Below, piece after piece: positions 4,320-50,456 of a stretch of 64,000 nt of DNA. The notes under the pieces were generated by a model. That model was not told the origin of the DNA and did no database searches. It saw nothing but the letters and a program-made list of their open reading frames with translations. Source of the stretch: Octopus sinensis (Eukaryota); the NCBI RefSeq assembly GCF_006345805.1, contig NC_043000.1, forward strand, positions 5,208,001 through 5,272,000. Direction: 5' to 3'. The translations under genes were made by a program, and so were the position numbers. Within the stretch, counting starts at the first letter, position 1; every line of letters starts with the position of its first letter.

Positions 4320-4525
4320 ATATTAAACAAACAACAAGGGAACAAAAAATTATGTAATGACTTCATTAGCTTACAGCTGTTTCTCTGACAAAAAGCAATA
4401 CACCCATAGCCAAGTTCCTGCGTATCATGTTATAGGTTTCATATATATCATTGCTATTATGCAAAAGTGTTGTAAGTCCAAAATGTTGCTTTTTCAGAAA
4501 ACAAAAAAATAGTTTCATCATTCTA
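4320..4525 (-). mobile_element. Degenerate PLE-like fragment with hammerhead remnant
   Basis: Minus strand GAAACAGCTGTA (4383-4372), same as the 49.9 kb HHR; upstream ATGATGA at 4521-4515. Confidence 0.4.
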
Positions 4526-46802: not shown

Positions 46803-47254
46803 TATTAGCAACAGAGGCATCCTTTGGAAGGATGAAAGACAGATGTGGCCTCAACAAGATTCAAACGTAGAACATAAAGGGGGCATAGTAAAAGACTGAA
46901 AGATATTTTGTCTAGCTCCCTAATGTTGAGTTCATGTTTCATTGTCTTGACAAGGAGGAATTTCAACCGTGTTTCGTGGTCTGCTACCACAACAGCTCCT
47001 TTGTAAGATCCAGTTAGCTCAAGACATCATCAGGAGAAACCACAACCGGTTTCGGCCCCTACTCCTCTACCGTTTTGACGTGGTGGGGGCCCCTCCTTTC
47101 GGAGGTGTCTTCAGCTCTGGTGTTGGGTGCATGTCTTCTTTCTTCTGTTCCCTCAACATCAACTCAACACTTGAATAAACTATGCTGCCCAAGACGGCAG
47201 AAAAAACTCACTACATGGTCACCTATCATGCTAGTAATAATCTCCTTTGAGTTA

Positions 47255-49800: not shown

Positions 49801-49926
49801 TACACACATAGATATATATTTATATATATACATGTATGTGTGTGTGTGTGTGTATATAAATATGTGTATAAAAAACACATTAAAACTAATGGTCATTACA
49901 TAGTTTTCCTTTATTGGAGCAAATTT

Positions 49927-50051
49927 GGCTTACAGCTGTTTCCAGTAGTCATTATGGGTACATTACTGACGGATTTACCCAATTGGTCTATTGATCAGTT
50001 GAGAAAAAATTGGAAGTCCTAAGAAAGTTAATGCTACTTTCATCAGAGTCC
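49927..50051 (-). ncRNA. Type I hammerhead ribozyme with extended helix II
   Basis: Minus: ggact CTGATGA (50046-50040) a AGTAG CATTA ...~74 nt... TAATG a CTACT g GAAA (49942-49939) CAGCTG TA / agcc; AATAAA 16 nt after the cleavage site. Confidence 0.65.
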
Positions 50052-50074
50052 TTTTGATAATTCCTCACTATTAG

Positions 50075-50137
<63 letters not shown>

Positions 50138-50138
<1 letters not shown>

Positions 50139-50454
50139 GTTATCAGTAATAATATAGGGTGAAATCAATTAATTTGGAATAATCATTAATTTCACCAAGT
50201 AGATTTCGGCATGTAAAAGCCCCATTCGAGGAAAGTTTAAGTAATACTAAATAATTAAGGGTTTAGCAACGATTTGCCTCACCACACACCGAGTTTAGAA
50301 ATAGCTATTCCTTCTACTAAAAGGGAGATCTCAGTAAAACCACAGCGGTGGTTTTACTGAGATCTCCCTTTTAGTAGAAGGAATAGATATAACCCTTTGA
50401 CTGCTATTTCTAAACTCGGTGTGTGGTGAGGCAAATCGTTGCTAAACCCTTAAT

Positions 50455-50456
<2 letters not shown>
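50138..50456. mobile_element. PLE-like fold-back element (92-bp inverted repeat, 4-nt loop, 17-nt bulge, one-sided extension)
   Basis: 50252-50343 pairs with 50348-50456; (TA)n on both flanks. Confidence 0.65.

Follow-up and report, generated by a model that had tools for sequence, protein, structure and literature searches.

The minus strand of the window, i.e., the whole 64,000-nt stretch of Octopus sinensis DNA analysed here (contig NC_043000.1, positions 5,208,001 to 5,272,000), very likely carries a terminal-repeat hammerhead from a Hydra-clade Penelope-like element (PLE), in the form of a decayed and dispersed copy. Helix II of this hammerhead is a 97-nt domain for which a rod is predicted; the source element likely cut its RNA after GUA as a dimer, and the copy in the window is predicted to be inactive. 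The copy belongs to a genomic family that is linked to an open reading frame (ORF) with a reverse transcriptase (RT) and, at the C terminus, a GIY-YIG endonuclease. The copies of this family have two preferred 3′ ends, and a long helix II is found in many hammerhead families of the same genome.

Direct reading of the minus strand from 50051 to 49927 showed that the elements listed in the original prediction are all present, including the helix II of 5+5 bp, the domain of about 100 nt, and the GUA triplet at 49931 (Table 1). The CUGANGA and GAAA boxes and the NUH triplet are those of a type I minimal PLE hammerhead. The spacer between CUGAUGA and GAAA, which makes up the 97-nt helix II domain, is almost four times the maximum of the published descriptor, where a stem II of 3–7 bp and a loop of 3–10 nt allow at most 26 nt (Cervera and de la Pena 2014, PMC4209133). 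Searches limited in length do miss hammerheads of this kind, as had been anticipated. The G10.1–C11.1 pair that is conserved in the hammerheads of PMC4209133 is absent in the window family, and the first helix II pair is A–U, flanked by A and G. This A–G at 10.1/11.1 had been singled out as a peculiarity, but a single unpaired base to either side of helix II proved to be the norm in the short families of this genome and in the published Hydra hammerheads. Likewise, the bulge described in helix I is a G>A substitution at 50049 in a helix that reads GGCT/AGCC in the family; this pair is G–C in 47 of 65 family copies. Helix III is dimer-competent, with a predicted duplex energy of −11.1 kcal/mol and no monomer hairpin (0.0). 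The core had also been called intact. This holds for its letters, all of which are there, but it does not imply activity, as the window copy is predicted to misfold.

Table 1. Positions of the hammerhead elements and of related features in the window.
Feature	Position	Strand	Basis or remark
Helix I 5′ strand, g-gact	50047..50051	-	Family GGCT; G>A at 50049 gives an A–C mismatch
Catalytic box CUGAUGA (C3–A9)	50040..50046	-	Sequence
Unpaired A, then helix II 5′ arm AGTAG+CATTA (5+5 bp)	50039 (A); 50038-50029 (arm)	-	
74-nt insert	49955..50028	-	Rod predicted in near-typical copies
Helix II 3′ arm TAATG-a-CTACT with bulged A, then unpaired G	49954-49944 (arm); 49949 (bulged A); 49943 (G)	-	
GAA box, palindromic helix III ACAGCUGU, A17 of GUA	49942-49940 (GAA); 49939-49932 (helix III); 49931 (A17)	-	
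Palindrome as DNA letters, ACAGCTGT	49939-49932	-	Sequence
Cut site, predicted	Between 49931 and 49930	-	After GUA
Helix I 3′ strand AGCC	49927..49930	-	Sequence
AATAAA	49910..49915	-	Usual in the family of the window copy
5′-truncated insertion, 184 nt: hammerhead, then 63 nt up to the first 3′ end of the family	49868..50051	-	Comparison with copies
25 nt from the far 3′ end of the same element (about +240 to +265), inverted and attached to the 5′ junction	50054..50078	+	Long ends of copies
(CT)n/(TA)n microsatellite flank	50075..50138	.	Kind of target used by Hydra elements
Hammerhead remnant from another family (L153 type), ~54-nt helix II domain, CUG lost	4349..4442	-	Alignment

The Rfam scan of the window at gathering thresholds gave no match. 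The loose core pattern was found twice in the window against 0.91 expected occurrences, and 24 of 100 shuffles reached two. The window copy folded no better than its shuffles (z 0.10), and the hammerhead was absent from its free fold. Within the window alone, the spacing of the motif is thus not beyond chance, and it is the genome-wide matches that establish the motif as real. The expected count and the z value would fit a chance pairing of two short motifs in AT-rich DNA; this reading is nevertheless already refuted, and we give it practically no weight, by the multi-copy family with its fixed spacing, by 701 genomic matches against 0 in the control, and by the ORF linkage.

A decayed relative had been proposed at 4.4 kb. 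The site is a hammerhead remnant of another family, as it aligned to L153, L160, and L147 with scores of 83, 72, and 70 versus 32 for the window motif; the spacers of this L153/L160/L147 family measure 43–54 nt. Another site on the minus strand, at ~47040–47115, has CTGAAGA, 54 nt, and then GAAACCGGTT, i.e., a palindrome but no clear helix II, and its hammerhead-like spacing is probably due to chance. A further observation concerns a near-perfect fold-back of ~205 nt in (TA)n at 50252–50456 (54 nt at 100% and 43 nt at 98%). It is very deep in the sequencing runs X7 and X15 and nearly absent in X8 and X17, and this run depth suggests a young, lineage-restricted repeat.

The search of the 2.7-Gb, microsatellite-rich genome for the family of the window motif yielded 48 scored matches from 1273 candidates, the best of them at 84–90% identity. 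All 33 letters specified in the strict family pattern were kept in 23 copies, and all 12 core letters in 35 of 65. Since 23 copies keep every specified letter at a median divergence of 9.7%, we infer that several hundred dispersed, ~10%-diverged copies span the motif. The four pairs of helix I (GGCT/AGCC) were each paired in 52–59 of 64–65 copies. AATAAA, which is usual in the window family, was found in 0/26, 0/7, 0/5, and 2/9 copies of other clusters and in 3/4 copies of one more; as it is not general to the class, its role is doubtful. We also considered a short head-to-tail tandem retrozyme without an ORF and rejected it, as no array is present at the site and the copies are dispersed and ORF-linked.

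The carrier was approached by walking upstream from the hammerhead. An AT-rich untranslated region (UTR) of ~1.2 kb came first and, further upstream, a linker and a GIY-YIG endonuclease, the latter two at two independent loci. Of 20 loci chosen by the endonuclease, 8 have the endonuclease, the 3′ UTR, the hammerhead, and the tail in colinear order on a single strand, one of the eight being the locus of the query itself. The decayed near-full copy L280 shows the order tail (the stretch found after the hammerhead in other copies), ATG, RMRWR, SDKT, RT, CNSRGDREC, and C-terminal endonuclease. The diagnostic motifs and (TA)n targets of the Hydra clade were described by Craig et al. (2021, PMC8557442). 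RMRWR and SDKT in L280 correspond to the RWK and DKT diagnostics, at this one locus and with K read as R. In L057, CELC stands before the E and CKH after the N, which matches the Hydra endonuclease diagnostics. The CxCx5C-like linker retains cysteines 1 and 3 in L280 and cysteines 1 and 2 in L057 and L066; all three were seen together in no copy. The family also shows the Hydra-type preference for (TA)n insertion, 5′ truncation with inversion, and two 3′ ends. Judged by these motifs, the carrier is probably a Hydra-clade PLE.

All the family ORFs seen were broken and no copy was intact; the ORF region of L280 together with the ~1.2-kb 3′ UTR suggests a length of >3 kb versus generally <3 kb for Hydra elements. 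A complete pLTR–ORF–pLTR tandem of the window-motif family was not found among the loci examined. The (TA)n targeting and published notes on "half-cores" had suggested an origin from Naiad elements. This was rejected because the endonuclease is C-terminal, not N-terminal; the published 3′ end of Naiad_Ovul also differs from that of the family. Two 12–14mers of the family were absent from the text of the supplement of Craig et al. (2021), where line breaks might mask a match. The minus strand of L075 (1874–2758) carries a decayed RT that is very similar to the published protein of Hydra-1_Obim; this insertion is distinct from a family copy that lies 5 kb away.

The 3′ ends of the 65 copies were then classified, against a reference that stops at +258. 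Past the cut site, 35 copies end between +40 and +75, whereas 15 extend to at least +253; of the rest, 6 end in between, 7 end before +40, and 2 have no room. Two preferred ends are consistent with the findings of Frangieh et al. (2024, PMC11167929) on PAc, a Poseidon element in which the RT was shown to start at two internal sites. All the classified copies, which had been picked to span the motif, extend past the cut site, pointing to uncleaved RNA as the template. Meanwhile, of the 5′ junctions in 32 copies from the first 30 loci (L001–L030), 19 lie within ~15 nt of CUGAUGA, 4 at 23–37 nt upstream, none from there to ~190 nt, and 9 further up. The cluster may reflect a transcription start inside the terminal repeat, an RT stop, or microhomology at (TA)n; a transcription start within the PLE terminal repeat is described in a review.

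The copy in the window is 5′-truncated, and the short inverted fragment at its 5′ junction is, by its sequence, a typical PLE inversion. Compared with the commonest letters of the 65 copies, it has 15 differences in 162 columns, 13 of which fall within the 74-nt insert. Its hammerhead fold costs 10.8 kcal/mol above the minimum-energy fold, its predicted homodimer contains no double hammerhead, and the window holds no partner hammerhead on the same strand. The window yielded no Hydra ORF remnant, and its 34 long frames gave no sign of a host gene. The stretch is included in DNA sequencing runs of five organism labels, with no RNA run listed, and contigs of four sequencing runs cover the motif; among the pieces listed for these four runs, none covers the locus from end to end. 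Some contigs of two runs presumed to be RNA cross the predicted cut site, but as contigs reveal neither the strand nor the RNA ends and may contain DNA, they speak neither for nor against expression or cleavage.

It is very improbable that the locus is an active ribozyme that, together with its poly(A) signal, has been taken up by the host for processing a transcript of its own. The intact core letters, helix II arms, and AATAAA, as well as the concentration of changes in the insert, would agree with such a use. However, the cost of the fold, its absence from the predicted dimer, the mutated helix I, and the missing partner on the same strand speak against it. A survivor like the window copy is also expected by chance, given that the 12 core letters are retained in more than half of the 65 copies and the full 33 letters in 23. 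The locus is probably a dead transposon fragment, and from its modelled fold we predict that the window copy is inactive.

In near-typical copies, the insert is predicted to form a bulged rod that continues helix II and is capped by an 8-bp hairpin. The rod comprises 39 pairs with 86.8% of the cells paired, the structure being taken from one of the copies. The near-typical natural copy L006, when co-folded with itself, gave a complete double hammerhead at minimum energy. By the strict double-hammerhead criterion, 3 of 20 exact-core family copies folded in this way versus 5 of 32 short-arm copies; in the minimum-energy model, the full double hammerhead was not seen in any long-arm copy from other families (0 of 111) or in any mid-length copy (0 of 34). 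RNAalifold did not recover the hammerhead from 55 family copies, and in a sister family it recovered only the base of helix II.

Covariation across paralogues had been proposed as a check. Within the window family it was not above shuffles (53/500 for pairs and 44/500 for cells). Neutral decay of the copies once inserted would lead to both this and the failure of RNAalifold, yet neither gives support to the structure. The sister family (17 copies, 97–107 nt) showed 30 cells with double changes versus 16.8 after shuffling (0/500), although the shuffle ignores relatedness. The folding of the inserts was modest, with a median z of −1.09 and 35 of 112 below −2; the corresponding values of the flanks were −0.32 and 14 of 111. 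An alternative hairpin competed with the 3′ arm of helix II in L023 and one L170 copy with a pair probability of 0.89–1.0.

The fold predictions also bear on the idea that the long-arm families have stopped cleaving and that their core letters persist for recognition by a promoter, the RT, or the endonuclease, or by inertia. None of the 111 other long-arm copies folds as a double hammerhead in the model, and helix I is weak in several families; in addition, mutating the PAc hammerhead left insertion in vitro unaffected, and RNA ends at its cut site were not found (Frangieh et al. 2024, PMC11167929). Nevertheless, the boxes, the NUH triplet, the palindrome, and the closure of helix II have persisted while the surrounding sequence turned over, and near-typical copies of the window family fold correctly as often as short-arm copies. 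We consider the loss of cleavage unlikely, and cleavage by the source element as a dimer remains the reading that we favour.

For the genome-wide search of long spacers, CTGATGA and GAAACAGCTGT, i.e., one helix III palindrome, were fixed and the triplet letter was left free, and reversed patterns served as controls. The exact-core matches numbered 2106 for spacers of 8–38 nt, 1531 for 39–79 nt, 701 for 80–110 nt, and 222 for 111–170 nt, whereas the controls gave 1, 1, 0, and 0 matches in the same bins. It should be noted that the reversed control does not guard against an upstream box that happens to lie next to a genuine 3′ half, and among the longest matches there are some of this kind. With spacers of at least 39 nt there were 2454 matches, some of the longest of which are chance pairs, and they outnumber the 2106 with spacers of 8–38 nt.

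The clusters were analysed in the first 30 loci of each spacer search, from which 3 of 120 loci with an inner motif were dropped. At least nine multi-copy clusters have spacers of at least 80 nt, and helix II closes in them with different sequences. In 24 clusters with spacers of 80–170 nt, the arms of helix II paired at −4.55 kcal/mol with their own partners versus −2.05 kcal/mol when swapped, the ranges not overlapping; the values for 10 clusters with 39–79 nt were −4.76 versus −1.87 kcal/mol. Helix I pairing was clear for the spacers of 39–79 nt (3.06 of 4 versus 1.93 swapped) and marginal for those of 80–170 nt (2.21 of 4 versus 1.92 swapped, with overlapping ranges). The NUH triplet was obeyed in 116 of the 120 examined loci, although its letter was free in the pattern, and helix II was as a rule flanked by a single unpaired base on either side (A–A, A–G, U–U, or C–A), in short families too. 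Among 60 loci from other long families, a Hydra-like ORF lay upstream on the same strand in only 4 cases, each represented by a single locus.

L227–L234 form a young, near-intact Hydra-like family with open frames of 400–900 aa, CUGACGA, a spacer of ~52 nt, and the palindrome AUGGCCAU. In L227 (1112–3869), a single open frame has a different endonuclease-like segment ahead of the Hydra RT; two PLEs are probably nested there in frame. Long spacers were also seen in hammerheads of L202, L208, and L229 (58, 43, and 59 nt), whose palindromes are different, and the class thus extends beyond ACAGCUGU; the helix III region of L202 is tandemly repeated.

One base of helix II was observed with spacers of 21, 29, 49, and 61–71 nt (L084, L092, L145, and others), and this graded series suggests that helix II grew step by step at its tip. 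Spacer lengths form a continuum between 20 and about 135 nt, and different families have unrelated sequences. A large-insert class of hammerheads, as postulated in the original prediction, thus exists and is much larger than had been guessed; it is not one subclass, as lengths are graded over many lineages.

The rod might be a selected functional domain, either a platform for protein binding or a folding switch that holds the ribozyme off until the RT has used the uncleaved RNA. We regard this as a tentative possibility, not the probable one. It would agree with the recurrence of long arms in the at least nine multi-copy clusters, with the double changes in the sister family, with the hairpin that competes with the 3′ arm in some copies, and with the uncleaved template suggested by the classified copies, selected as they were to span the motif; moreover, another PLE hammerhead requires its protein (Frangieh et al. 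2024, PMC11167929). On the other hand, the lengths are continuous, the sequences are unrelated between families, and the most abundant class is short-armed; a motif shared among the inserts was not noticed. Most likely, the extension of helix II is tolerated and shaped by a folding constraint on source elements and is not a new catalytic part.

The window family resembles the Hydra-clade hammerheads of Craig et al. (2021, PMC8557442) in its type I core near the 3′ end of the element, the palindromic helix III, the single unpaired base on each side of helix II, and the (TA)n targets. The C-terminal GIY-YIG, RW(K/R), DKT, CxxC, and CxH are likewise shared, and the linker resembles CxCx5C, with two of the three cysteines in each of L280, L057, and L066. 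The published Hydra loop 2 has 3–10 nt, whereas the spacer here has 97 nt and those of sister families up to ~135 nt. The window family has a 3′ UTR of ~1.2 kb. The hammerhead listed for Hydra-1_oBim in PMC8557442 is a different, short one. The minimal PLE hammerheads of Cervera and de la Pena (2014, PMC4209133) share with it the CUGANGA, GAAA, and NUH elements, a short helix I, a palindromic helix III, an extra base after A9, mostly solo copies, and an expected low activity of the dimer only. Contrary to the statement that PLE hammerheads usually have a very short helix II, that paper reports one larger than usual, of 7–8 bp.

As with the hammerhead of PAc (Frangieh et al. 2024, PMC11167929), copies of the window family pass the cut site, have two preferred ends, and lie in AT-rich targets. 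However, the two ends are ~195 nt apart here versus the 30–40 bp tail of PAc, and the ORF starts ~280 nt after the cut, whereas that of PAc starts inside stem II (PMC11167929). Two kinds of precedent for a longer helix II are given in PMC8557442 (Craig et al. 2021), namely the plant element PLE-X1_sMoe, whose loop 2 of ~35 nt is the longest in the table, and the "HHR_half_core" cases of Naiad elements with half-cores 35–50 nt apart. These cases are isolated, marked as deviating, from other clades, and shorter, and the part of that paper available to us describes no genome-wide series of lengths. Non-LTR retrozymes (PMC7229834; bioRxiv 10.64898/2026.07.22.740005) are similar in having type I hammerheads in animal repeats and are related to PLE terminal repeats, but they are short tandem units without an ORF, while the window family is dispersed and tied to an ORF. 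A helix II of 40–135 nt in PLE hammerheads had no report in the literature searched, parts of PMC10085705, PMC3088659, PMC6765202, PMC13725137, and PMC7229834 included, which does not prove its absence from print.

The likely course of events can be outlined as follows. By analogy with known PLE hammerheads, two hammerheads, in tandem repeats or in two transcripts, would pair through the 8-nt palindrome, and cleavage of the dimer would be slow and probably assisted by the protein of the element, as for another PLE. Reverse transcription would begin internally, ~+63 or ~+258 past the site, on uncleaved RNA, and insertion would take place at (TA)n. Lineages may lengthen the tip of helix II as long as the tip folds back and the closing pairs stay. 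Such lengthening is possible because the tip points away from the core and minimal hammerheads need no loop–loop contact.

The core of mammalian Clec2 hammerheads is split by a long insertion outside helix II, in a single-copy motif of the mRNA 3′ UTR that is active as a monomer. The core of the window motif is also split by a long insertion, but it is borne by a transposon and the insertion lies in helix II.

The ~2,400 long-spaced matches in the genome are invisible to the standard PLE descriptor. As matches with spacers of 39 nt or more exceed its 26-nt limit and the Rfam scan was blank, hammerhead censuses and statements that a PLE has no hammerhead need to be redone with an open helix II. 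It is conceivable, though we would not expect it, that Hydra-clade elements of this lineage have repeatedly made helix II a domain of 40–135 nt that binds the protein of the element or, as a folding switch, times cleavage relative to reverse transcription, and that PLE clades described as lacking hammerheads have some that are overlooked in the same way, such as the Naiad half-cores; animal counts would then be substantially underestimated. The graded natural series, with 21, 29, 49, and 61–71 nt on one base and 97–135 nt in other families, offers a ready test of the role of PLE hammerheads and of the amount of RNA that helix II of a dimeric minimal hammerhead can accommodate.
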